29,639 nt of DNA, from the IMG/VR virus record IMGVR_UViG_3300030508_000019; one strand, 5' to 3'. The notes under the pieces were generated by a model. The model did no database searches. It was given only the letters and a program-made list of their open reading frames with translations, and was not told the origin of the DNA. This document shows, one piece after another, positions 10,265 through 29,365 of this stretch. The stretch's first letter is position 1; every line of letters begins with the position of its first letter. Position numbers and translations under genes: made by a program. Origin of the DNA: a virus.

Positions 10265-11431
10265 TTAAGAAACTCCGTTATAAAAATTAGACGCTGCCAC
10301 ACTAGTGGGGTTTAAAAGAAAAGATGTATTTGCCATATTATCTACGGATGTAGGAGCTACTTGTGGCAGGGTATTGTTAACATTAGCAGCCGCAACAGAT
10401 GGGGAGACTAAAGCTGGTTGACTATTCAATGTACTAAACCCAACACTAGAAATATTGGTTCCTGGTATATTTGATGGAGGTAAATTAGCCAACGATGATA
10501 CTGTAGTTGTACCATTTTGTGAAGTGGTAGCAGCCGAAGCCCATGCTCCATAAGTATGCCCTCGTTGTACATTATTGAGAATCAAATTTTGATACGGGGA
10601 TGTGGAGCGAAATCTCTCTTTCCATGCGATAAAACTGATTTGAAAATTCATCAGCCAAGGTGCTTCCGCCGATTGACTAATAGTAAGGGAATCAAACATA
10701 CCGTACCAAATAAAATTTCCTACCCACAATTCGACATCTTGGTGCATTTTGATTCTACGTCTGGTGAAATCCGCTGCGAGTGGGCCTTCAGCTGCTTGCT
10801 CTCCTTCAAACCAGTATCCGTTATTTTCAAACACCATGACCAAAGACTCTAAATTCCGATAGGAATCTGAAAATGGTTGAAACTGATCTGTAACTCCAAA
10901 GGCAAAATATTGGCCAGCGGTTTTACCGCTGAGATTTACTTGGAAAGAATCTTCTCCCCACACACCTATCTGCCAGCCAGCACGAGTCATAGCTTGCCCA
11001 TCTAAAGTTTGTCGATTGACTTGAACCTGAGACGGGTTAATGAGAAATCGAAAAATAGCTGCTGGTGCATTACCATTTTGTTGTCCGGTGGATGTAACTC
11101 CGCGATGTGGTATACGAACGAGTACATAATCCACGAAGGGTTTCATCGCCCCCGCTGTAAAAAAATCGCTATATTGCACAAGACTTGTTCGACCGGTGGC
11201 AGCGTAACCCTTATCTTGAGGGGATTTTTGTCCCCGTGCTGTATATGCTTTTTCAATCTGACTACTGGTATCGCTGGGGCTAATAGGACAGGGAATGATG
11301 CGTTTCTCTCCGCGAATAGGCAGTTGAACAGGGGATGTTTGCGCCGAATTTCCCGCAGTTATATTGAAATCACTAAAATCGGTACTTACATTTGATCCAA
11401 TATTGGAGTTGTTTGTATTTGTGCTCGCCAT
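10265..11431 (-). CDS. Virion structural protein (388 aa). Its core domain is paralogous to the central domain of the 484-aa lysin-domain protein
   Basis: TAATG start/stop overlap with the upstream gene. Shared motifs with ORF 11431..12885 are TRAGWQIGVWGE..SGKTAGQYFAFGVTDQF versus SRTGMHITLWGM..SGTTGVFMNQYGITDWF, and APWLMNFQISFIAWK versus SPFQWKFSFTFQV. Confidence 0.5.
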   Translation of the reverse strand: MASTNTNNSNIGSNVSTDFSDFNITAGNSAQTSPVQLPIRGEKRIIPCPISPSDTSSQIEKAYTARGQKSPQDKGYAATGRTSLVQYSDFFTAGAMKPFVDYVLVRIPHRGVTSTGQQNGNAPAAIFRFLINPSQVQVNRQTLDGQAMTRAGWQIGVWGEDSFQVNLSGKTAGQYFAFGVTDQFQPFSDSYRNLESLVMVFENNGYWFEGEQAAEGPLAADFTRRRIKMHQDVELWVGNFIWYGMFDSLTISQSAEAPWLMNFQISFIAWKERFRSTSPYQNLILNNVQRGHTYGAWASAATTSQNGTTTVSSLANLPPSNIPGTNISSVGFSTLNSQPALVSPSVAAANVNNTLPQVAPTSVDNMANTSFLLNPTSVAASNFYNGVS

Positions 11432-12885
11432 TAAATATCTCCCACGGGTCCTGAAGTTGTAGTTTGTACTGGACCTAAAGTTTGAGCTATGGTATTAGTT
11501 GCAGATGTAACCATAGTTGTGGTAAGACCTCCTACACTTGCGGATCCCCCACGTTCTGTCAATGTAACAATCGGCTGCGTTGTAGCTTGAGCCAGTAAAT
11601 TAATCTTAGGGAGGGGTTGAGTGACTTGAAAATTGGGATAATACAATGATGTATAGGTATTCTCAACTTGAAATGTAAAAGAAAATTTCCATTGAAACGG
11701 GCTGTCCGCATCTTGGGTCCAATTCAAAGACTTGAAATACCCCAAATAAACATTGTTTCTATACTTCATCCCCACATACCCGCGTGTCATAACATCATTG
11801 TTACGCCCATGTTGTTGAAATGAACTGGCTCCTACTTTGGTAGACCAACCATTCGGGGCTTGTTGTTCTTGTTCGCCCATAGTTCCGTTATAACTATCCG
11901 TGTGATACCACACATTACCGTTCATTTGGAATAACTTCAAAAATTCTACAAAACAATCCTGTGCCGCTACTCGATAGGCTTCTGGGTTTTGGTTAATAGC
12001 CCTTTCTGTATCGGGATTGTTACTAAAACCAGCTCCTACCAATTTAGCTATCTCATCATTAATTTGAGCGGTGCTGAACCAATCTGTAATACCGTATTGA
12101 TTCATAAACACTCCCGTAGTGCCGCTACCATTGATGAGATCCGGTTGCATACCCCAGAGGGTGATATGCATACCTGTACGCGATGGGGTGCGATTGTAAA
12201 CATGCTTACTTGCTATTTCAAATGTAGTCATTGATGTGTTGAGTTCAATGACGATAGGTTGCTGATTAGTGGGGTTATTCAGCGTTTGTGTGGGGTCATT
12301 ACGATCCAGGTATACTACAAAACTCACTGGTTGTACCATACCACGCGCATGAGGATTTCCAGTGACTAAATTTCTATCCAAATACCATGGCGTGGCGCTT
12401 AGACTTGGCTCCGGAACCTGTAAAGGCGGTGTAAGATCAGCCGCTGATAATCCGTAATTAGTACCGGTTGTGTTAGGCCCAATAATATTTCCTACTTGAG
12501 GCGCTACTGGAGTATTTAGTACATTAAACCGGGAAATTCCTAAAGTACTAGCAACTTGAGTTGCTGTATTTGGGTCTAGATGGTCCAAAAAAGCACCGCT
12601 TCCAAAGGTAGTCCAAGCACGGTAACCTTGGGCTTGGAAAATAGCGAAGGCTGCGTCAGCATTAGCTTGAGGATCTGTTATTACATTTTGGTCATACTGT
12701 GGCCAATAATGCCCATCTATTTGCCAAAGGCCTACTGACCCCCCAGGGTCGTCTGGATTATATTTATTGGGATTCCCACTACTCTCCGCTAAAGCAATAG
12801 CGGCCATGATGGGTATTTGATCTCCTGTAAAACCTGCATTAGCTGCAAAACCCTCTAATTGGTTGAAATTATATATTGTTGGCAT
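11431..12885 (-). CDS. Tail-associated peptidoglycan hydrolase (484 aa). N-terminal lytic-transglycosylase (lysozyme-like) domain, central structural domain, and the shared C-terminal module
   Basis: The N-terminus IALAESSGNPNKYNPDDPGGSVGLWQIDGHYW matches the catalytic Glu-Ser ... G-L-(M/W)-Q signature of family-1 lytic transglycosylases (SLT domain), as found in virion-associated lysins. It lies immediately downstream of the tape-measure-like gene. Confidence 0.7.
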   Translation of the reverse strand: MPTIYNFNQLEGFAANAGFTGDQIPIMAAIALAESSGNPNKYNPDDPGGSVGLWQIDGHYWPQYDQNVITDPQANADAAFAIFQAQGYRAWTTFGSGAFLDHLDPNTATQVASTLGISRFNVLNTPVAPQVGNIIGPNTTGTNYGLSAADLTPPLQVPEPSLSATPWYLDRNLVTGNPHARGMVQPVSFVVYLDRNDPTQTLNNPTNQQPIVIELNTSMTTFEIASKHVYNRTPSRTGMHITLWGMQPDLINGSGTTGVFMNQYGITDWFSTAQINDEIAKLVGAGFSNNPDTERAINQNPEAYRVAAQDCFVEFLKLFQMNGNVWYHTDSYNGTMGEQEQQAPNGWSTKVGASSFQQHGRNNDVMTRGYVGMKYRNNVYLGYFKSLNWTQDADSPFQWKFSFTFQVENTYTSLYYPNFQVTQPLPKINLLAQATTQPIVTLTERGGSASVGGLTTTMVTSATNTIAQTLGPVQTTTSGPVGDI

Positions 12886-12927
12886 ATTGATTATTGATTA
12901 TTGATTATTGATTATTGATTATTGATT
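12886..12927. repeat. Perfect heptanucleotide tandem repeat (ATTGATT)x6 (AATCAAT on the coding strand). It spans the TMP stop codon and ends 1 nt from the lysin start codon
   Basis: Six exact 7-bp units are read directly from the sequence. They resemble STRR-type heptamer arrays of heterocystous cyanobacteria. Confidence 0.9.
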
Positions 12928-15900
12928 CCTATTTGGAAGTCCCCCATTCAACCAAGGAGCGATTGCCGGGTGCATCTGTTTACCTGCTTGTTCATTAGAC
13001 ACGCTTGCGCTGTCATTATACCCAGCATCTTGGTTAATTTGAGCACTATAAAAATTATATACAGTATGGGACACCGGTGGACCCGACGGAGACCCCCCAG
13101 CCCCTTGTGGGATCTTGTGTCCCATAAACCAAACGCCGGTATTTAAATCTGGATCCAAATCATCATTGGATTGGTTGCCCGATAATTTATCTAATATTTC
13201 CTGCATTTGGACATCGTTTTTAAACATTCCTAGGCCTTCATATTTTTTTAAGTATTCCACCAAAGCTGTATCTTTATCGATGGTGGTTTCCAAAAGCTTT
13301 TCTCTGTTTTTAACGGCATCAGTTTGATTTTCCGAATTTAATCGCTTTAGTGTTGCCGCTGCTTCAGCCGACTCTTTCCGGGCTGCATCCATAGTTTCAG
13401 GTATTTTGGCGTCTTCAAAAGCTTTTGTAAGCCTATCTGAATCAGTTGGGCCTCCAAAGATCCAACTATTAGCCATATGTTCTACGAAAAATATCAACTT
13501 ATTAAGTAATGGGGCGATTAACTGTTCAAGAACATCAGAAGGAGATATTTCTCGTTTTTGAATACTTGCTTCGTCTTCTATAGACTTTGCTAAATCTGGA
13601 TCTTTTATATCCATGGGCTTTAGGTTTTTTAATACCATTGCTTGGGTGCTTGGTAATTCTTCTACCAAAAGCTGTAGTTCACTAAGTAATTTTTTTGGGT
13701 TTGTTTGCTGAGAATCTAAAGCATCATATAAATCATCTGTTGATTTTGTTCCGTTTTCTACCTCTGATATTAATTCTTTACTAGCTCCTTTAGTCCCCAA
13801 ATCTACAAGAAAAGGTCCTCTAGTTTTATTAGCTTGCCACAGTTCCCTAAATAAAGCTTTTCGAGCATCTTTTTGAGCTGCTACATCTTCTTTCCCTGCT
13901 CCAGGTAACCCTCCTGGCATTTCGTCAATATCTTTTATACGACCTGTCGCCATATCTTGAGAATTTTGTTGGATGAAAGCTACAGCATCTCCCTTTACGC
14001 CTATTGCATCAAGAATCTGCGTCAAAGCCATAGCTGCGCTAGGATTTATTGAACCGGTTAATATACTACTTAAGTCAGTACCAGAATACTTTAAGGCGCT
14101 TAGGACATTGTCTTGGGCGGTAGCTGCTGTTTGATATTGACTTCGTTGAAAAAGAGTAGCGCTAGCCGCACGACCTTCCATTGTACTCCCAGGTGCGTAT
14201 GCTGCGCTTTGTCGAAGAGATAAAGTAAGATTGTTTAAAGCATCCTCAAGATTCTTTCTAGTTCTTTCATCTTGAACATTTGATACGGCTACTCTTTGAG
14301 CTTCAATAAGACTTACAGCTTTTGTTGTATCCCCTTTGGCTATTAAGTCTTGTATAGTAGATTTATCTATTTTATCTGCTCCTACCGACTGTCCGTTAGC
14401 ATCTACTAACTTTCCACTATCTACTTCGTCATTATACATATCAACATAGGTTCCAGCTTCCTGTTGAAACCGTTTATTCCCTTGAATAATTTGTGCTGGG
14501 TTTTTTAAAGCTTCCTGCCACATAGTTTGAGCTAAATTTCCAGAATTTCTTTTGTCACCGCCTTGAGATAAAAATTCCATCATATCTTTTAAAGATTCTG
14601 AACTAATAGCTCCATAGCGACTAAGATTACGCATCATTTCTGTAGTAAACTCTAAAGAACGATTCATACGATCAAAATGCATACTTACTTCATCAATGAT
14701 TTTTAAATATTTGGTAGTACTTATACCTGCCGCTTGTGTATCTTTATTTAGTTGAGTAAAAAACTTTTCAGAACTACGCATAGTCTGCCCATATTGATCT
14801 AACAACTTAAGTAATTCCGTTACTCCTTCTGTATCGGTCAAGCCCGCAACTCTAGCTGCCCCAAAAACTACTCTCTGTGCTTCCCCCAGGCTACCACGCA
14901 TATACCCTCTATTTCCTCCCGGTCCTTGATTGGCTGTATCAGGGGCGTTATCTACCAAGGAACCCCCTATGTTAGTTCCACCCGCCGCTAAACCTCCAGC
15001 TAAATCTAAATTCCTTTCAAAAGTTATTCCCAGCCCCAAGCCCTGCCCCATGAGCCTTGGTGTTAAAGCATTTCTAGCTGTTTCAAAAGCTGTACCAGCT
15101 AACTCCCCTGCTCTAGCGCCAGAGAATAAACCAGCTTTTCCTAACTTCCCCTCCATTTCTTTATTTTGCTTTATGTAAGTTCCCATTAAAGCACTGAGTC
15201 CTACAATAACGCCAGCGAGAACTTCAAGAGGTATCATGATTTCCGGAGCAATTCCTGTAAGTGCTGTTATCGCCCCCTCAATACCTTCGGAAAGAGTGCT
15301 CATGGCCCCTACTACACCGGAACCTCCTTCCATTGCGGCGGTATATCCGATCCCTGTTGCACCTTCAGATTCGAATCCTTCAGCCATTGTTCCGGCTTTG
15401 AAATCAGCCGCTTTTTTACCTTTAAACCCCATTTTCTTCATTAAAAATTGCATACCTCTTTCGGTGGGTTTACCTTTTTCATCAAACTGACGAGGTTCTC
15501 CCGCTTCCTGCATTTTTTTCATTTCTTTAAAAGCGGCGTCTCGTTTATTTGTCATATGCTCGCGTGTCGCAGCAAGACGATGTTTTTTAGTTTCTTCAGT
15601 TTTATCCTTCAATTCTTGAATTTGTTCTAACCTACGGTCTATTTTATAATTAATCCCTTTCCCGATACCGACGGTTCCCAACATACCCATGATGCCTTTA
15701 AAATGCGCCAATGAAGGACGAAGTTGACTAAGTGCTTTAGCTAATGCTAAAACATTTTTTGTAGAATCGCTGACAATCTCACCAACCTTAGCTAGCTCTT
15801 CTTCATTTAGTTTAATCGCCTTACCTATTTCGCTATATACTTTTTTAACTTTATCCAATTCTTTGTTGAGCAACTCAGTCTCAGTTCTATTTGCTTTAGA

Positions 15901-16275
15901 GTCTTTTAAAATTTTGTTATATATTCCCATCAATTTTTCTAACTCTTTCTTTGCCTTATCTGTATCCCTCATTTGATCTTTACCTATTTTTTGAGCTTTT
16001 TTTGACCAGTTAGCTACCTCTTTGTAACTTTCTTGAAGATTGTCACTGTATTTCACAAAATCCTTCATAGTACCCACACCATCTGTAAGATGATCGACTA
16101 CCTTATCAGTCATATCCGCTACTGTGGTAAAAGTTTTTTCAAGTGTCTCTCCTAAAGCTGCCATAGTGGTAGTGAGCCCGGATAAAACATTTAATGCAGC
16201 GGACAAATCTGGATTAACTGGTCCTTGTGGGTTGTTATTACCAGGTCCTTGCGGGTTGTTAGGATCGTCGGGCAT
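12919..16275 (-). CDS. Tape-measure-like protein (1118 aa)
   Basis: Very long, K/E-rich helical protein with Gly-rich hydrophobic segments (GIAPEIMIPLEVLAGVIVGLSALMGTY; GLGLGITFERNLDLAGGLAAGG) typical of tail length tape-measure proteins. It is preceded by a small chaperone-like ORF with a TAATG overlap and followed by a lysin-domain tail protein. Confidence 0.55.
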   Translation of the reverse strand: MPDDPNNPQGPGNNNPQGPVNPDLSAALNVLSGLTTTMAALGETLEKTFTTVADMTDKVVDHLTDGVGTMKDFVKYSDNLQESYKEVANWSKKAQKIGKDQMRDTDKAKKELEKLMGIYNKILKDSKANRTETELLNKELDKVKKVYSEIGKAIKLNEEELAKVGEIVSDSTKNVLALAKALSQLRPSLAHFKGIMGMLGTVGIGKGINYKIDRRLEQIQELKDKTEETKKHRLAATREHMTNKRDAAFKEMKKMQEAGEPRQFDEKGKPTERGMQFLMKKMGFKGKKAADFKAGTMAEGFESEGATGIGYTAAMEGGSGVVGAMSTLSEGIEGAITALTGIAPEIMIPLEVLAGVIVGLSALMGTYIKQNKEMEGKLGKAGLFSGARAGELAGTAFETARNALTPRLMGQGLGLGITFERNLDLAGGLAAGGTNIGGSLVDNAPDTANQGPGGNRGYMRGSLGEAQRVVFGAARVAGLTDTEGVTELLKLLDQYGQTMRSSEKFFTQLNKDTQAAGISTTKYLKIIDEVSMHFDRMNRSLEFTTEMMRNLSRYGAISSESLKDMMEFLSQGGDKRNSGNLAQTMWQEALKNPAQIIQGNKRFQQEAGTYVDMYNDEVDSGKLVDANGQSVGADKIDKSTIQDLIAKGDTTKAVSLIEAQRVAVSNVQDERTRKNLEDALNNLTLSLRQSAAYAPGSTMEGRAASATLFQRSQYQTAATAQDNVLSALKYSGTDLSSILTGSINPSAAMALTQILDAIGVKGDAVAFIQQNSQDMATGRIKDIDEMPGGLPGAGKEDVAAQKDARKALFRELWQANKTRGPFLVDLGTKGASKELISEVENGTKSTDDLYDALDSQQTNPKKLLSELQLLVEELPSTQAMVLKNLKPMDIKDPDLAKSIEDEASIQKREISPSDVLEQLIAPLLNKLIFFVEHMANSWIFGGPTDSDRLTKAFEDAKIPETMDAARKESAEAAATLKRLNSENQTDAVKNREKLLETTIDKDTALVEYLKKYEGLGMFKNDVQMQEILDKLSGNQSNDDLDPDLNTGVWFMGHKIPQGAGGSPSGPPVSHTVYNFYSAQINQDAGYNDSASVSNEQAGKQMHPAIAPWLNGGLPNRNQ

Positions 16276-16904
16276 TAGTTAGTTTTTTCCTTTTCTTCTT
16301 CTTTATATAAGTCTGAGACTTGATCTTCTAGAATAACTTTTTGTATATCATCCATTTGTTTCTTGGCTCGCTCAATCAAACGCGCTTCTGCTTCCGTCAT
16401 GATTGCGGTATTAGGGAACTGCTCCTTCAAGCGATCTTCAACATTTTGGGAATGATTCATTACTACTTTCCAAAGAGTTTCTACAACTTCTTGCCCCCAA
16501 CCCATGATGATGTTTCGCAGCACTACTAAATAATCTTTTGATAGACTCTTATCTGTGGGGTCGGAGACAAATCTTTGGTCTAGGGGAAGGTTACGAAGGT
16601 TTATTCCATTAATCCAAGAAATGGATCGAGAAAGAAGTTCTACCTTGACTCGTTTAATCCAAAGATAGCCTTTAAATTCATCCGCTGCTTGGATAGCCAA
16701 CATTTCATCTGATGTTGGGATGTTTGAAATTTTTAATTGTAGAATATGGCTTCCACTTTTGACAGTGAGAATTTCTTCAAAATCCTCTAGACCAAATCCC
16801 CGAAGTCCTGCGATTACATCATCCAAGGATTTAGGTTTCTCAATCTCTGGGGTTGGTGGGGCTATTTCTTGTAATTCACTTTGTGCTCTTTCTACATTAT
16901 CCAT
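16275..16904 (-). CDS. Putative tail assembly chaperone or hypothetical protein (209 aa from the ATG; an alternative GTG at 16949 gives 224 aa)
   Basis: The ATG at 16904 has a strong SD (aacAGGAGctttATG) on the minus strand. It is translationally coupled (TAATG) to the TMP-like gene, and a position immediately upstream of the TMP is typical of gpG/gpT chaperones. No sequence motif confirms this. Confidence 0.4.
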   Translation of the reverse strand: MDNVERAQSELQEIAPPTPEIEKPKSLDDVIAGLRGFGLEDFEEILTVKSGSHILQLKISNIPTSDEMLAIQAADEFKGYLWIKRVKVELLSRSISWINGINLRNLPLDQRFVSDPTDKSLSKDYLVVLRNIIMGWGQEVVETLWKVVMNHSQNVEDRLKEQFPNTAIMTEAEARLIERAKKQMDDIQKVILEDQVSDLYKEEEKEKTN

Positions 16905-17057
16905 AAAGCTCCTGTTAAGTGGGGTTGCAGTTAAAAAAACCGAAATCACTAACGGTTAATACTCTTTATTTGAAAATTATCTCTAAAATGTTGAAAATAT
17001 GGTCTTTACAATTAGCCAAAACCAGTGTTTTTGATGTATACTAAGAGTGGAGGGAAG
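16905..17057. promoter_or_regulatory. Divergent intergenic control region between the minus-strand virion operon and the plus-strand membrane-protein gene
   Basis: AT-rich 150-bp non-coding gap between divergently oriented genes. It carries a TATACT -10-like hexamer followed by a GGAGGG SD before the ATG at 17058. Promoter positions are not determinable by eye. Confidence 0.3.
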
Positions 17058-19370: not shown

Positions 19371-22277
19371 TTGTCTACTAACAAATCGCAATTCGCTAAT
19401 ATCCAATTAGGCGTTAAATTACTTTTTCAACCCCATCAACTCGTTGAATGTCGTGTTCGTCTCACCTCTGGTCCTTGGCGTGGATTTTATTTCACCGATC
19501 ATGGTCGCTTAGCGGATGTTGTAAATCAACTGGATCAAGACCCTCGTGTTACTTCAATTTATTATGTCATCAATCCAGTAAAAGCGAATCTATTAGTAGA
19601 AAGAGCGAAATGTACTTGTAAAATATGCGTTAAAGGTAAAGGTGGGTTATTAGTAGACAACCCCACAGACATTCAAGTTGAATCCATTTTAACTGGCCCC
19701 TCACAACATCTCACCGGAAATGAAGATGTAGATTCTCTTAATTGGTTATTTATAGATGTTGATACTGTACGTGCCAAGGGAATGGAGCATGAAAGCTCTA
19801 CCAAAAAAGAAAAAGCAGCAGCATGTGGTGTAGCGAAAAGTGTACTCGCTTTCTTGGATGAAAAACAATGGCCCAATCCTATATTTGGAGATTCCGGCAA
19901 CGGTTTCCATATTCTAGCAAAAATAAAAATGCTAAATATGATATCCAACACTCACATGTTGCTGGATTGCTTGAAAGTGTTATCAAAAAAATTCAATTGT
20001 GAGGCAGCCCATATCGATGACGCTGTATTCAATCCTGCTCGTTTAACTAGAGCCTATGGTAGTACTACGCGCAAGGGTACCAATACCCCTGAACGACTTT
20101 TCCGCTATAACAAACTTGTAGAACCCAGTAGTCCGATTGAAGAAGTCCCCCTGGAAAAAATCATTTCCTTAGGTAGCGAAATTCCAATATCCAGCCGTCG
20201 AACTAATGATATTCCTGAATTGGACCCTAAATTTGACCCTGCGGATTGGATCAAGTGGTACGAAGATCAAGGTGCTTTCTCTATTGAAGAAGAGCGTGAT
20301 ACCAGTGGATTACACATCATGGTTACCGATACCTGTTTAAATGCTGGGCATCGGCATACAGGGTCTACTTACAGCGGGTTTGTAGTAGGGGACAGCTTTG
20401 GTTATCACTGCTTCTCCGATGATTGTCCTGATGTCACTATCGGAACAATTTTTAAGATTTTACGAGAGACCTTGGATGAAAATGGCAAACAAAAATACAA
20501 GCCTTACCTGGGTCCTATTTTTAAAGATGATGGATTAGAAGAATTTATTTTGGAGTTCGCTGATGTTTTAGAAAAAACAGAAACATCTATCGAACAAGCT
20601 CAAGAAATTCAAATGGATAAAGTCATGGAAGATAGTCCATCCGATAAAGTGGAGGAAAAATCTACTACTCGTGATGCTTTGGATATAGAGTGTAACCAAC
20701 AAGCAACAGATCTTCTAAGCATTATATTACACCATCCCGCAGAAGTATGGGAAGATGGCTTTATTTTTTATGTTAAACGAGTAAAAGATAAATTAGGATT
20801 TAACAATAAAACACCAAAAAAAGTGGGGTTAGGTGAGGTGGGTGTGCCTACATTAGGAATGCCTATAGGTGACACCATGTCTATGCTATTAAAATTTATA
20901 GATGTTCATCAAAAACTTCCAGATAAAGAAGCTTTAACATACTTTATTCAAGTAAATGATGATCCTACGGTTAAAAATAACAAATTTAAGGATGAGGTTA
21001 TACATTTTGTTAATAACTTACCAGACCGTCCGATAAGTACTTTTGACCATACAGCACAACAATTCCTTAAAAAACTAGATTTACGCCATGAATATAAAGC
21101 ATGGCGTGCAGCTTACAATCATTTCTTATTTACCGAAGGTGATATACAAGGGGCGAGAAAAGCTTTAAGAAAACATTGGAATATAAGTACAGCACAGGAT
21201 ACAACCTTCGAACAAGGTTCTTGGCAGGAAAACACTGAATCTATCTTAGCTGATTTTGAACGCGATCTTAGAGGAGATGATGATAGCCGGAAAATGATGC
21301 TAGGTTTCCCAATTATTGATAATTCTGGAGCAAATATTGGTTTAGATGGAGATCGTTACATATGTCTATGTGGACCATCAAATAACCGAAAAACCACAGC
21401 TGTTCTTTCCATAGCACTTAATTTAGCTATACAAGGACACCATGGATTATTTTTTGCTGGTGAACACCAGAAACCTAAGCTTCTTAAAAAATTAACTCTT
21501 CAACTTTCTCATTTCTTTAGAGATGATGAAGAAATAGGTCATATCCCAGGATTAAATAATTGGGAAGGATTGAAACGAACCGCCACAGAAGAAGATTTTG
21601 GTCATGTTAAAACCTTACTAACTAAGCTCCGTCTAGGTAAAATTGTACCTGGGCATTTAGAACCTCAAAATATTGATGCTCTCTCTCGGGGAGATGACGA
21701 TAAGGTGGGGGCGTTACTTGCTTATGCAGAAGCTACATGGTCTAAGTATCAATGGACTTACATCGTAATTGACCCTATTGATACAGTTATGCCCGTAGGT
21801 GGAGATAGTAATCGTGATGGACAAAGTATCTGGGATCGTAAATCAGAAGTTATTGAAAGATTATTACGTTTTAGTCGTAATGCTTTTGGTGGAAGAGGTT
21901 GCGCAGTATTTATTACCGCCCAATATAAGTCAGATGCGGCTAGAGAAATTCAAGGGTTACAGGAAAAGAATGTAGGACCGGATAGGTTTGATGATGCTAT
22001 CGCATCTGTGTTACGTCGAGATAGCAACATTCAAACCCTCACTACTATCATTCAAAAATGTGATTTATGTATAGGTATTGCCACATTAACAAAAAATGGA
22101 GATGTGGGTTTGATGGTGAGAGGTAGAGATCGTGAGGGTGGTAGAGATTGGGAATTAGAGTTTGAAGTAGATAAAGATTCTAATTATATGATGCAATCGA
22201 AACGTGAACGATCTTATAAAGTAGCAGCAGCTGAATCTTCAGCTCCTGTACATTTGGAACAGGTGGATCAATTATGA
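19371..22277 (+). CDS. Primase-polymerase (AEP/prim-pol domain) fused to a RecA/DnaB-like (AAA_25-type) helicase domain (968 aa). TTG start
   Basis: The N-terminal half carries the AEP catalytic motifs (LFIDVDT acidic DxD motif; SGNGFHIL sGxGxH motif) and a Cys/His cluster (GYHCFSDDCPD). The C-terminal half has a P-loop-like CLCGPSNNRKTTAV and a Walker-B-like WTYIVIDPIDTV. GAGGAG SD lies 5 nt upstream of the TTG. No in-frame ATG until about codon 138. Confidence 0.7.
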   Translation: MSTNKSQFANIQLGVKLLFQPHQLVECRVRLTSGPWRGFYFTDHGRLADVVNQLDQDPRVTSIYYVINPVKANLLVERAKCTCKICVKGKGGLLVDNPTDIQVESILTGPSQHLTGNEDVDSLNWLFIDVDTVRAKGMEHESSTKKEKAAACGVAKSVLAFLDEKQWPNPIFGDSGNGFHILAKIKMLNMISNTHMLLDCLKVLSKKFNCEAAHIDDAVFNPARLTRAYGSTTRKGTNTPERLFRYNKLVEPSSPIEEVPLEKIISLGSEIPISSRRTNDIPELDPKFDPADWIKWYEDQGAFSIEEERDTSGLHIMVTDTCLNAGHRHTGSTYSGFVVGDSFGYHCFSDDCPDVTIGTIFKILRETLDENGKQKYKPYLGPIFKDDGLEEFILEFADVLEKTETSIEQAQEIQMDKVMEDSPSDKVEEKSTTRDALDIECNQQATDLLSIILHHPAEVWEDGFIFYVKRVKDKLGFNNKTPKKVGLGEVGVPTLGMPIGDTMSMLLKFIDVHQKLPDKEALTYFIQVNDDPTVKNNKFKDEVIHFVNNLPDRPISTFDHTAQQFLKKLDLRHEYKAWRAAYNHFLFTEGDIQGARKALRKHWNISTAQDTTFEQGSWQENTESILADFERDLRGDDDSRKMMLGFPIIDNSGANIGLDGDRYICLCGPSNNRKTTAVLSIALNLAIQGHHGLFFAGEHQKPKLLKKLTLQLSHFFRDDEEIGHIPGLNNWEGLKRTATEEDFGHVKTLLTKLRLGKIVPGHLEPQNIDALSRGDDDKVGALLAYAEATWSKYQWTYIVIDPIDTVMPVGGDSNRDGQSIWDRKSEVIERLLRFSRNAFGGRGCAVFITAQYKSDAAREIQGLQEKNVGPDRFDDAIASVLRRDSNIQTLTTIIQKCDLCIGIATLTKNGDVGLMVRGRDREGGRDWELEFEVDKDSNYMMQSKRERSYKVAAAESSAPVHLEQVDQL

Positions 22278-22840
22278 GTGAAATTTTGCCCGGATGGAGT
22301 TGGTTTAAATTCGATATAGATGGTTGGTTATCTAGTAAAGATGTCCAGTGTATGAATATGAATGATAGGGGAATGTATACCCATCTTCTAATTATTCAAG
22401 CACGCGATGGAAAACTTGATGCTGATCTTCGTCATCTTGCTAAACAGGCAAATGGTGTTGATTATAGATCGGTTAAAAGTTGGATGAAAAAATGGGGATA
22501 TCTCTTCCCTATTATTGGGCTAGACCCTGACTTAATGGTTGCGCAGGCGCAGCGTCCGTGCAGCGTCCACGCTGCGTCCCCGCAACCTACATGCAGCGTC
22601 TGCGTTGCGCCCGCGTTACCTCTACGCTGCTTCCCCGCTGCGTCCTGGATGCGTGGACGCAGCGCCCGCGTAAATCCCAAGCTATGGAATTTGCAAGTAA
22701 ATACGGGAAAATTTGCATCTCTGCCGATCATAGAGGAGAAGAGAGGAGAAGGGATACTAGAAGGAGAATTAGAAGGAGATAATACTGCCGTAGTATTAAC
22801 CTGTAAAAATAAATCTTTATCTAAAGGTGTAGGTAAATAA
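22274..22840 (+). CDS. Replication-associated protein with a DUF1376-like N-terminal domain. The coding sequence embeds an 11-bp iteron-like array and a polypurine tract
   Basis: ATGA overlap with the primase-helicase stop (translational coupling). The N-terminus FKFDIDGWLSSKDVQCMNMNDRGMYTHLLII fits the D-(Y/W)-L-x-(D/S)-T/S ... LS ... E/D-x-G-x-Y-x-x-LL pattern of phage DUF1376 replication proteins, recalled from memory. Downstream, the ORF reads through a GC-rich repeat that is open in all six frames, so its true C-terminus is uncertain. Confidence 0.45.
   Translation: MSEILPGWSWFKFDIDGWLSSKDVQCMNMNDRGMYTHLLIIQARDGKLDADLRHLAKQANGVDYRSVKSWMKKWGYLFPIIGLDPDLMVAQAQRPCSVHAASPQPTCSVCVAPALPLRCFPAASWMRGRSARVNPKLWNLQVNTGKFASLPIIEEKRGEGILEGELEGDNTAVVLTCKNKSLSKGVGK
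22539..22670. repeat. Twelve tandem 11-bp GC-rich units (consensus cWGCGTCCnCG). Iteron-like array, candidate replication origin
   Basis: Units read directly from the sequence are ttgcgcaggcg, cagcgtccgtg, cagcgtccacg, ctgcgtccccg, caacctacatg, cagcgtctgcg, ttgcgcccgcg, ttacctctacg, ctgcttccccg, ctgcgtcctgg, atgcgtggacg and cagcgcccgcg. The island is GC-rich within AT-rich flanks. It contains a 10-bp inverted repeat gcgtccacgc (22563-22572) / gcgtggacgc (22651-22660). Confidence 0.7.
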
Positions 22841-26657: not shown

Positions 26658-27152
26658 ATGAACGTAATTGAGTACTGCACAGAGGAAGTGCGTAGACAAG
26701 GGCATGATATTACTCTGCTTGACGGCATTCAGAGAGTTGGTTGGATGTTAGACGGTTGGACTTACGCTCTTGTTAACGTTTCCGATCGCATGCCTGATCT
26801 AGGTGATGCAATCAGTTTGGGTATGCTTGTGGAAGTTAAGAAGAATGTTAACGGACTGCGTAACTGTGACATCCGAGTAGGTGATTGTATATGCCCAAGA
26901 CCAGATGAACTTCGTCGGCTGCTTAACAGGCTGTTCGATCTCCGTGATAGTATGACACCAATCGAGTTTTACAAAGAGTTTGAGATGATTCATCCGTTTG
27001 TTGACGGTAATGGGCGAACGGGTAAGATTCTGTTCAACTGGTTAAATAGGACGTTATTTGATCCAATCTTTCCGCCGAACGACTTGTTTGGTTATGTTGT
27101 AGCTAAACTGCCAGACGGACAGCGCGTTGCTGCCGAATTACCGACCGCATAA
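26658..27152 (+). CDS. Fic/Doc-family (Fido) domain protein (164 aa)
   Basis: IHPFVDGNGRTGKILFNWL matches the Fic active-site motif HPFx(D/E)GNGRxxR, with the last Arg replaced by Lys. A strong SD (GGAGTGAGGA) precedes the ATG. Confidence 0.7.
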   Translation: MNVIEYCTEEVRRQGHDITLLDGIQRVGWMLDGWTYALVNVSDRMPDLGDAISLGMLVEVKKNVNGLRNCDIRVGDCICPRPDELRRLLNRLFDLRDSMTPIEFYKEFEMIHPFVDGNGRTGKILFNWLNRTLFDPIFPPNDLFGYVVAKLPDGQRVAAELPTA

Positions 27153-27930: not shown

Positions 27931-28590
27931 ATGGCAGTAGCGGGAGCAGCAAAGGCGAAGAAGGTGTGTGAGGTGTTTGACACACCATATATCATTACCC
28001 TAGTTCAACAAGCAAAAGCTGGAGATGAAGCGGCTTTTTCAACTCTATATCACAAATTTTATCGGTATTTGAGTAATACTATAAGGCGCGTTCTTCCCGG
28101 GCAACAACCGGATACAGCGGACTGGCTCGCCAACAAAGCCATGACCCAAGCCTGGTTAAATCTCAAAAATTTCAATGAGAAATCCACATTTCAAACCTGG
28201 ATTACACGCATTGCCATCAACGAATGGAAGATGTATATTCGTGAAGAAACATCCGTAGGTCGTCAACGAGACAAAGAACTTTCTCTAAATGAAATTTTGG
28301 ATGAAAATCCTAGCGACGGTAAATTTGGACAACGGGACATTAATTTAGCTGGTATCGCTGATCGACAAATGCTTGATTTGTCGCTTAAAGGTATCCCTAG
28401 TGTTTACCGTGATATTGTGTATTTAAAATTGTGGATGGGATTTTCCGTGAAGGAAATTGAAAATATCTTGGGAGTGAAAAGACCCAAAAAAGTCGGAATG
28501 AATATCGTTAAGGGTCGTAAGATGTTGCTGGAACAGGTAAAAAAGAATTCTACAAATAGTCCTAGACAAACAAGGATGACCGGGGTATAA
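27931..28590 (+). CDS. ECF-type (group IV) sigma-70 family RNA polymerase sigma factor (219 aa)
   Basis: Region 2: AKAGDEAAFSTLYHKFYRYLSNTIRRVL and TFQTWITRIAINEW. Region 4 helix-turn-helix: YRDIVYLKLWMGFSVKEIENILGVKRPKKVGMNIVKGRKML. Confidence 0.85.
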   Translation: MAVAGAAKAKKVCEVFDTPYIITLVQQAKAGDEAAFSTLYHKFYRYLSNTIRRVLPGQQPDTADWLANKAMTQAWLNLKNFNEKSTFQTWITRIAINEWKMYIREETSVGRQRDKELSLNEILDENPSDGKFGQRDINLAGIADRQMLDLSLKGIPSVYRDIVYLKLWMGFSVKEIENILGVKRPKKVGMNIVKGRKMLLEQVKKNSTNSPRQTRMTGV

Positions 28591-28717: not shown

Positions 28718-29365
28718 ATGAGAATAAGTAAGGTAACAATTTTTGCGTTAATTTTGAGTTTGCTTTCGTTTGTTTCTGCGGCCTCTGCCGATCCCATCAC
28801 TCTGACGAATCTATTCGGCACCATAAGTATTAGCGATATCGGCGTAGGTGGAATGGGCACGATTGGTTCAACTACCATTACATCTCACGGTTCGGAGCTA
28901 ACAAACTTTGAAGGAATAACCGCTCCGCATGGGCATTCGCTTGGTTATGTAGGGTTTTCTACCGGCGTGCTAGAAAGCGGAAGTGTGCTAAACGGTGGGG
29001 TATTTTCCAGTACCGGGTCCACTTTCGATGTTATCGGTAAGGGTAAATTTGGACAACCTAAGGGAAATATTTTTATCGGCAGCTTTGTAGGTCCTATTGA
29101 CTGGACATTAATCTCCCAAAATAAGCAGGAGCGAACCTACACTTTAACAGGTGAGTTGTCTGGAACACTCTGGAATGGGCGTTTTACAACTGGGTACACT
29201 ACCCAAACCATCAATATACTCAACAAGAATCAACTGAACGGCGGTGTGGGGCACATTGGGCTTGGTTCTACGAGTATTTCCGCCCCTGAACCAGGGACTT
29301 TAGGTCTGTTGGGAACAGGACTCGTAGGGATCGCTGGAATGTTTCGCCGGAAGTATTTTTCTTAA
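28718..29365 (+). CDS. Secreted PEP-CTERM domain protein (215 aa), an exosortase substrate
   Basis: N-terminal signal peptide (MRISKVTIFALILSLLSFVSAASA). The C-terminus has a PEP motif plus a TM helix plus a basic tail (SAPEPGTLGLLGTGLVGIAGMFRRKYFS), the PEP-CTERM signature. Confidence 0.8.
   Translation: MRISKVTIFALILSLLSFVSAASADPITLTNLFGTISISDIGVGGMGTIGSTTITSHGSELTNFEGITAPHGHSLGYVGFSTGVLESGSVLNGGVFSSTGSTFDVIGKGKFGQPKGNIFIGSFVGPIDWTLISQNKQERTYTLTGELSGTLWNGRFTTGYTTQTINILNKNQLNGGVGHIGLGSTSISAPEPGTLGLLGTGLVGIAGMFRRKYFS

Follow-up and report, generated by a model that had tools for sequence, protein, structure and literature searches.

IMG/VR virus record IMGVR_UViG_3300030508_000019 is a stretch of viral DNA of 29,639 nucleotides (nt), here called the window in its whole length, and one of its gene junctions carries a short tandem repeat that is the subject of this report. 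On the minus strand of the window, a gene for a tape-measure-like protein is followed by a gene for a tail-associated lysin, and the gap between them is filled by six perfect copies of the heptamer AATCAAT. The number of copies differs among phage genomes that are otherwise identical. The features at the junction are given below, with protein lengths in amino acids (aa) and SD standing for Shine-Dalgarno sequence.

12886..12927, minus strand: perfect heptanucleotide array, (AATCAAT)x6 in coding-strand terms and ATTGATT on the plus strand, that takes up the entire intercistronic gap; hypervariable microsatellite.
12919..12921, minus strand: TAA stop of the tape-measure-like gene, its T being the final base of unit 1 and its AA the opening two bases of unit 2.
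12883..12885, minus strand: ATG start of the SLT-domain tail lysin gene, directly abutting unit 6, with A at -3 and -2 and without an SD.
12927..12930, minus strand: AGGA, abutting the 5' end of the array and sharing its first base; candidate ancestral SD.
12919..16275, minus strand: tape-measure-like gene, 1118 aa, ending ...PNRNQ-TAA; named from remote homology and synteny.
11431..12885, minus strand: tail-associated lysin gene, 484 aa, with an N-terminal SLT_3/SLT lytic transglycosylase domain (residues 13-93) and a C-terminal tail-protein region.

Tandem Repeats Finder delimits the array at 12885-12927 (period 7, 6.1 copies, 100% matches, 0 indels), and no other perfect array of at least three copies is found in the window. 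That this is a real feature is statistically unambiguous: with at most two mismatches allowed, the 14-mer made of two units has 6 matches here, against an expectation of 0.70 per shuffled window, and 0/100 shuffles came up to 6. Read on the minus strand, the junction is ...CCA AAT AGG [AATCAAT]x6 ATG CCA ACA...; the array sets in 6 nt ahead of the tape-measure stop and ends at the next ATG. Any array of at least three units holds a TAA in each of the three frames (AAT CAA TAA; ATC AAT AAT CAA TAA; TCA ATA ATC AAT AAT CAA TAA). The 42 nt preceding the lysin ATG are free of G, and therefore of any SD, while most other genes of the window have GAGGA/GGAG/GAGGAG-type motifs 6-10 nt before their starts. 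The original prediction, which had described a perfect six-copy array with the tape-measure stop inside it, closing all three frames and abutting an SD-less lysin ATG in a genome of otherwise strong SDs, is borne out on all these points by the repeat search, the sequence and its open reading frames (ORFs).

The ATG at 12885..12883 is taken as the true start of the lysin because the SLT_3 domain begins at residue 13 and because the N-terminus, MPTIYNFNQLE, resembles the MANYTYQQLE of a 47%-identical homologue. On the coding strand, no promoter-like or terminator-like site was found at the junction, where the scan gave fewer sites than shuffles, and an Rfam search with E up to 1 returned chance matches to eukaryotic families only; the tape-measure and lysin genes are thus presumably co-transcribed.

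How variable is this array in nature? More than 100 blocks of public assemblies encode exactly these lysin and tape-measure proteins, on contigs that are 55-77 kb long except for one of 153 kb. Units were counted in 17 independent contigs of the same phage, taken from ENA and JGI assemblies.

7 units: nine contigs (L003, L008, L010, L011, L015, L016, L019, L053, L185).
6 units: three contigs (L004, L012, L017), plus the window.
4 units: three contigs (L005, L009, L018).
3 units behind a degenerate AATTAAT: two contigs (L006, L007).

The window, with 6 units, and L003, with 7, show 0 mismatches over 13,406 nt, which leaves the array as the sole difference in more than 13 kb; likewise, there are 0 mismatches in the 9,814 nt of flank that the window shares with L009, a contig of 4 units. 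Several alleles were recovered from both MEGAHIT (k141) and JGI assemblies, and alleles co-occur in apparently the same sequencing projects. Since whole units come and go between identical flanks, it is essentially certain that the array is a hypervariable microsatellite, changed by slipped-strand mutation far faster than by substitution. Short perfect units set head to tail, together with whole-unit differences (3+1, 4, 6 and 7 units) between otherwise identical genomes, are the marks of a simple sequence repeat, or variable number tandem repeat (VNTR); the comparison of copy number among related genomes that the original prediction called for is positive for length variation.

An assembly artefact is a very unlikely source of these alleles, which are concordant across MEGAHIT k141 and JGI assemblies; besides, the arrays, of at most 49 nt, are below the largest k-mers. 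Two Logan contigs assembled with k=31 (L020 and L021) stop ~20 nt beyond the tape-measure stop, within the array region, as would be expected when a repeat of 42-49 nt meets so short a k-mer. A scan of metagenome_contigs with a junction 30-mer found one contig, the error-prone L053 (Ga0182031_1264877). Its lysin gene has many single-base insertions and deletions relative to all others, probably sequencing errors, and its count of 7 units deserves less weight.

Slippage had been predicted to alter both the C-terminus of the tape-measure protein and the spacing to the lysin start, and only the second effect is found. The distance from stop to start is 5+7(n-2) nt, that is 19, 33 and 40 nt for n=4, 6 and 7, in agreement with the called gene coordinates. 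The tape-measure protein has 1118 aa and the same C-terminus in the 4-, 6- and 7-unit alleles, because its stop is complete two bases into unit 2, and any allele of at least 2 units leaves it unchanged. In L006 and L007 the protein ends ...NPSRIPNRLGN, with the stop within AATTAAT and a spacer of 22 nt; judged by its sequence, this divergent C-terminus is a separate haplotype, not an effect of copy number. Both diverged tape-measure haplotypes carry the array, which is therefore not brand new within the species.

The tape-measure gene (12937-16275) is itself mosaic among contigs with near-identical lysin and downstream genes (L004, L006, L007, L012). There is a type A of 1118 aa and a diverged type B of 1110 or 1112 aa, and L007 joins a type A body to a C-terminus of the L006 type. 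Many long contigs break off inside this gene, which is consistent with co-occurring variants disrupting assembly.

As for the identity of the two genes, tblastn against 50,697 phage records matched both junction proteins to one record only, that of Tunturiibacter phage Tunturi_5, a jumbo myovirus of Acidobacteriota with 58% G+C and the sole cultured relative. The tape-measure-like protein, for which no Pfam or PHROG family gave a match, is 33.6% identical over 244 aa (22% of its length, E 2e-23) to Tunturi_5 gp257, whose label, 'tail length tape measure protein', comes from annotation, not experiment. The lysin matches gp256, a 'lytic tail protein', at 34.6% (E 2e-52). Window and Tunturi_5 also have a gene order in common: chaperone, tape measure, lytic tail protein, structural protein, tail protein and tail fibre. 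With remote homology and synteny behind them, the labels 'tape measure' and 'lysin' of the original prediction are reasonable. The lysin scores 69.1 bits for SLT_3 (cut-off 27) and 26.2 for SLT (cut-off 21.3), and the stretch ALAESSGN at its residues 31-38 holds the catalytic Glu-Ser motif; a domain above the curated threshold and a catalytic motif point to an SLT family lytic transglycosylase, and 'lysin' here stands for a tail-associated (virion) enzyme and not an endolysin.

In all, 210 homologues of the lysin were collected. Those named P0022, P0029, P0043, P0050, P0053, P0085, P0101 and P0117 (P0003 / L176 is also listed) are on contigs of 447-465 kb plus one of 894 kb, which could be a very large phage clade or prophages in bacterial contigs. 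Megablast of 11400-16300 against the same 50,697 phage records gave no match. The pattern of the array with its flanks had no match in IMG/VR, where the phage was taken as absent and two loci at 43-44% identity were all that came up.

The same junction in relatives lacks the repeat in all six cases examined (6/6), and the two genes are close together (TAATG, TAAATG or 14-15 nt).

Tunturi_5: AAATAATGCCA, TAATG overlap.
L001: GGGGATCTATTGTAATG, GGGGA..TAATG.
L002: GGAGGTACTCCGTAAATG, GGAGG..TAAATG.
L176/L177 (lysin 65% identical): GAGGGACCATAAATG; the gene caller picked a downstream GTG.
L174/L175 (lysin 69% identical): 15-nt spacer with GGTGGA.
L178 (lysin 47% identical): 14-nt spacer with a weak GGTG.

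L176/L177 keep the same order of tail genes, with a GIY-YIG ORF inserted among them. SD-like motifs at the junctions of the relatives are mostly clear, and weak in L178; GGAGG, GGGGA or GAGGGA are found where the window has AGGA. This AGGA is now ~41 nt from the lysin ATG and would sit 6 nt away if there were one unit, which suggests a displaced ancestral SD. Tight junctions recur within the window, where others overlap or are adjacent (16275, 11431, 10264/10265, 7158/7160), among them those of the two genes on either side of the pair.

16275..16949, minus strand: putative tail assembly chaperone, 224 aa, named from its position only (as Tunturi_5 gp258); it overlaps the tape-measure start by 1 nt.
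10265..11431, minus strand: downstream tail gene, 388 aa, its start and the lysin stop having 1 nt in common; its Phage_tail_tube_init match is weak and below cut-off.

The 1-nt overlap of the lysin stop with the start of the 388-aa gene indicates that tight junctions are usual in this tail module. Because the junctions of the relatives and the neighbouring ones of the window are tight and free of the repeat, comparison of the sequences makes it essentially certain that the array is a lineage-specific expansion within a junction otherwise built for translational coupling.

What, then, does the array do? The reading that we favour, with moderate confidence, is that it is a hypermutable, lineage-specific microsatellite acting as a tolerated, unstructured and SD-less spacer, whose copy number drifts in a nearly neutral way. 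Slippage-type replication changes add or remove whole 7-bp units at the stop/start junction. The expansion would have carried both the upstream stop and the ancestral SD (AGGA) too far from the lysin ATG, and lysin translation would be uncoupled from that of the tape measure. In E. coli and Haloferax, intergenic distances of ~20 nt almost completely abolish termination-reinitiation coupling (PMC10666635; review, PMC12548453), and all alleles, with 19-40 nt, are at or past this limit. Given this distance, and an AGGA that is more than 20 nt from the ATG in all alleles, the lysin gene should be uncoupled and SD-less. The array had been proposed as a possible coupling element, and the reverse is suggested here: the stop/start overlap or few-nt gap of a termination-reinitiation pair (TAATG, ATGA) is the state of this junction in the relatives and of the neighbouring junctions of the window, whereas the array puts 33 nt between the two genes in the window and 19-40 nt across the alleles.

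The lysin would instead be started by de novo, SD-independent initiation, on a leader that is G-free, A/U-rich and predicted to be unstructured, with TAA in every frame and A at -3, a base that favours initiation in Flavobacterium johnsoniae and E. coli (PMC6847099). Folding prediction leaves the array ~0.84 unpaired, and the predicted accessibility of the start region (-20..+15) rises from 0.52 at 0 units to 0.77-0.78 at 4 units or more, followed by a plateau; if it matters little whether there are four or seven units, the free drift in copy number would be accounted for. All observed alleles would already be past the range of coupling and of SD spacing, changes between ~4 and 7 units should have little effect, and variation in copy number would at most fine-tune how much is made of a protein of which each virion needs few copies. 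Since the need for tail lysin per virion is presumably low, a weaker start may be tolerated.

Some points weigh against this reading. Among the 17 contigs, alleles have only 3-7 units, and none has 1-2 or more than 7, a bound that could reflect selection on a range, not neutrality; in the same way, the persistence of the array on diverged tape-measure haplotypes could mean that it is maintained. The copy numbers come from assemblies rather than reads, and they describe variation between samples, not the mutation rate within a population. The host appears to use SD sequences, which leaves the efficiency of SD-less initiation there in question, and the translation of the lysin and its dependence on copy number are what we infer.

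An alternative is that the array is an adaptive contingency locus, or rheostat. Slippage would then give heritable and reversible differences in the ratio of lysin to tape measure, with the efficiency of coupling or of standby binding dropping with each unit, and virions with differing lysin loads may suit hosts or growth states with different cell walls. The high mutability of the array, the several alleles within the same sequencing projects, its retention on different tape-measure haplotypes and its bounded range of 3-7 units all agree with such a role, and there are precedents for graded effects of repeats in leaders. Expression of hmw1A of H. influenzae, with its (ATCTTTC)n repeat, is inversely proportional to repeat length (PMC12721329), and that of uspA2 of M. 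catarrhalis, with (AGAT)n, depends on repeat number, as cited in PMC4679880. Like the phage array, these rheostats are hypermutable short repeats (heptamers in hmw1A and hmw2A) that are transcribed before the start and vary in copy number among isolates. However, they lie in 5' untranslated regions downstream of a promoter and have at least 11 units, whereas the phage array is intercistronic and has 3-7; and the hmw repeats act via a long hairpin whose G-rich arm is cut by RNase III, whereas folding prediction leaves the phage array mostly unpaired, with no complementary G-rich segment as partner. Besides, every allele is already beyond the distance of ~20 nt at which coupling is lost, the predicted accessibility is flat from 4 units up, so that little graded effect is expected, and no relative has such a device. 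We therefore rate the rheostat as unlikely.

Simple on/off phase variation, which the original prediction had also raised, is not supported, because the array is outside both ORFs and has no promoter-like site on the coding strand, and neither a frame nor a promoter mechanism is at hand. The neuO gene (capsule O-acetyltransferase of E. coli K1) gives a measure of the difference: its repeat is part of the coding sequence and turns expression on and off via the reading frame, which the phage array cannot do. The two are alike in that the neuO VNTR of prophage CUS-3 is also a phage-borne heptanucleotide repeat whose copy number is changed by slippage (PMC13001214).

Does the same unit occur elsewhere? 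In IMG/VR, (AATCAAT)x4 is present in 30 stretches, many of them giant-virus bins. A scan of 185,579 species genomes of a species-representative set matched at least 120 stretches, and among the matches listed most are from Bacteroidota (Saprospiraceae, Flavobacteriaceae, Cytophagales, Chitinophagaceae), accompanied by Planctomycetota, Gammaproteobacteria and few cyanobacteria (Trichormus, Pleurocapsa, Prochloron, Hyella), one of them from the Nostocales. The proximity of arrays to gene starts was counted for 100 non-redundant bacterial arrays with adequate flanks, using ATG ORFs of at least 100 codons and the antisense orientation as internal control, a simple ORF-based count that is no substitute for curated gene calls. 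Such an ORF begins within 20 nt of the array in 19 sense and 2 antisense cases (binomial p = 2e-4), and within 10 nt in 12 and 1 (binomial p = 0.003). The stop-array-start layout of the window recurs at eight bacterial loci (L061, L079, L099, L128, L143, L144, L161, L172), where a long ORF is ended by the array and an ATG ORF begins 4-16 nt past it. The AATCAAT unit is thus shown to be compatible with an immediate gene-leader role in many bacteria.

In some metagenome-assembled genomes (MAGs) the arrays reach 15-16 units and are present in several copies, as in the Saprospiraceae MAG CAYRYD01 (L055, L059, L060, L086, L119, L163) and in Planctomycetota B140_G9 (L058, L100, L108, L130). Several Saprospiraceae MAG arrays have near-identical upstream flanks (TATTTCTTACA, TATTTCTACA, TATTTGCTACA), in the manner of a dispersed promoter or leader element. 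A literature search on AATCAAT/ATTGATT arrays returned unrelated papers only.

The closest described likeness is that of the TAACTGA arrays (MacGregor 2015, PMC4679880), which are intergenic in marine Beggiatoaceae, Cyanobacteria and Bacteroidetes, number up to 169 sets per genome, and are found at ribosomal and other operon junctions, mostly before genes without an SD. The phage array shares with them the tandem heptamer, the sense orientation with stops, so that only ORF ends are overlapped, the position a few nt upstream of a start, and the lack of an SD and of predicted RNA structure; (AATCAAT)n in bacteria shows the same start-proximal, sense-orientation bias. It differs in its unit (4/7 match in the best register), in being a single array, and in its place in a phage. 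Copy-number polymorphism is documented for the phage array, and function is unproven for both.

One could go further and place (AATCAAT)n in a wider and largely undescribed class of start-proximal heptamer leader arrays, with TAACTGA as the sole described example, that would act as SD-independent, slippage-tunable initiation regions in many bacteria and phages; here, the array would be a contingency locus setting the ratio of tail lysin to tape measure and diversifying the infectivity of virions. This broad proposal is a speculative one, and we regard it as quite unlikely.

Slightly less probable still is that the array is a repeated site for an RNA-binding regulator of lysin translation (ribosomal protein S1, a cold-shock or CsrA-like protein, or a phage protein), as was proposed for the TAACTGA arrays. 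The common layout, the positional and orientation bias in bacterial genomes and the many copies in some MAGs would fit a binding site, but the unit is not TAACTGA, for which the regulator idea is itself unproven, and the window of 29.6 kb has one array only, with no candidate binding protein found. A copy number that varies freely also argues against a precise operator of several sites.

It is highly improbable that the array acts at the level of DNA or transcription, either as a recombination hotspot at a module boundary or as a G-free, UC-containing entry site for Rho, through which the tail genes further downstream would become polar on lysin translation. The mosaic tape-measure gene next to a nearly invariant lysin, and a variant segment in L006/L007 that reaches the array, would suit a boundary, but the haplotype breakpoint of L004/L012 is ~100 nt upstream; in turn, the array is G-free and predicted to be unstructured, as a Rho entry would be, but 33-40 nt offers little room for Rho to load.

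Least credible, and largely refuted, is a short tandemly repeated repetitive (STRR) sequence derived from or shaped by a heterocystous cyanobacterial host, at which the original prediction had hinted: tandem heptanucleotide units, reportedly described by Mazel and colleagues in 1990 as typical of Nostocales, ~41% G+C, a PEP-CTERM protein and an (AATCAAT)x4 in one Nostocales genome (Trichormus sp. NMC-1) are compatible with it, but the unit is not one of the STRR1-3 families (CCCCAGT, TTGGTCA, CAACAGT), which are dispersed in many copies over Nostocales chromosomes and not confined to a single array in a phage, the window has no STRR heptamer array, no HIP1 and no avoidance of AvaII sites, AATCAAT arrays are mostly from Bacteroidota, Planctomycetota and Gammaproteobacteria among the matches listed, with few from cyanobacteria, the sole cultured relative infects Acidobacteriota, and strong SD use, as in the window, is atypical of cyanobacteria.

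Two other candidates were rejected. Fusion of tape measure and lysin via ribosome hopping or frameshifting in the repeat is precluded by TAA, which closes all frames. A peptidyl-tRNA(Gln) landing on the last CAA would read TAT GCC AAC AAT ATA TAA, a dead end out of the lysin frame. As for a site for integration host factor, WATCAA is there, and the TTR part of the consensus is missing.

The array is best classed among the hypermutable simple-sequence repeats of gene leaders, with a layout near that of the start-proximal heptamer arrays and an unusual site, the tape-measure/tail-lysin junction of a phage. It offers a clean natural case of a microsatellite whose rate of change exceeds that of the remaining phage genome by orders of magnitude, and a ready strain marker for a widespread phage. 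A tape-measure/tail-lysin junction that is normally coupled has here been separated without loss of viability, which bears on how strictly the stoichiometry of the tail tip needs translational coupling. Together with the orientation bias of AATCAAT in bacteria, the case extends the little-studied heptamer arrays that are placed right before starts. Should copy number indeed tune the dose of lysin, a virion structural module would be subject to a simple-repeat contingency locus, a case of which no description was found in the literature searched.

With regard to the rest of the window, the remaining genes are typical of a tailed phage: a CBM_5_12 tail-fibre-like protein, a class II ribonucleotide reductase, a Fic protein and a sigma-70-like protein. 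The 224-aa putative chaperone ORF has no family match in Pfam or PHROG, and no tRNA genes were found in the window.

The question of the host can be approached from a few signals. There is no positive signal for a heterocystous cyanobacterium, and Acidobacteriota are a weak lead, the cultured relative being distant and having 58% G+C against 41% here. The tetramer ACGT is strongly depleted over the whole window, with 22 occurrences against 58 predicted by a Markov model and 109 by base composition, and several hexamers that contain it are missing altogether, a pattern which suggests that a host restriction system is being avoided. At 28718-29365, on the plus strand, a 215-aa protein has a C-terminal PEP-CTERM sorting motif (26.9 bits, cut-off 20.7), next to the sigma-70-like gene (27931-28590) and the Fic/DOC gene (26658-27152). 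A PEP-CTERM cargo protein is unusual on a phage and could indicate a Gram-negative host that bears an exosortase. Finally, imperfect repeats of 11/22 nt (CGCAGCGTCCC...) are found at 22548-22645, on the plus strand, within the ORF 22274-22840.

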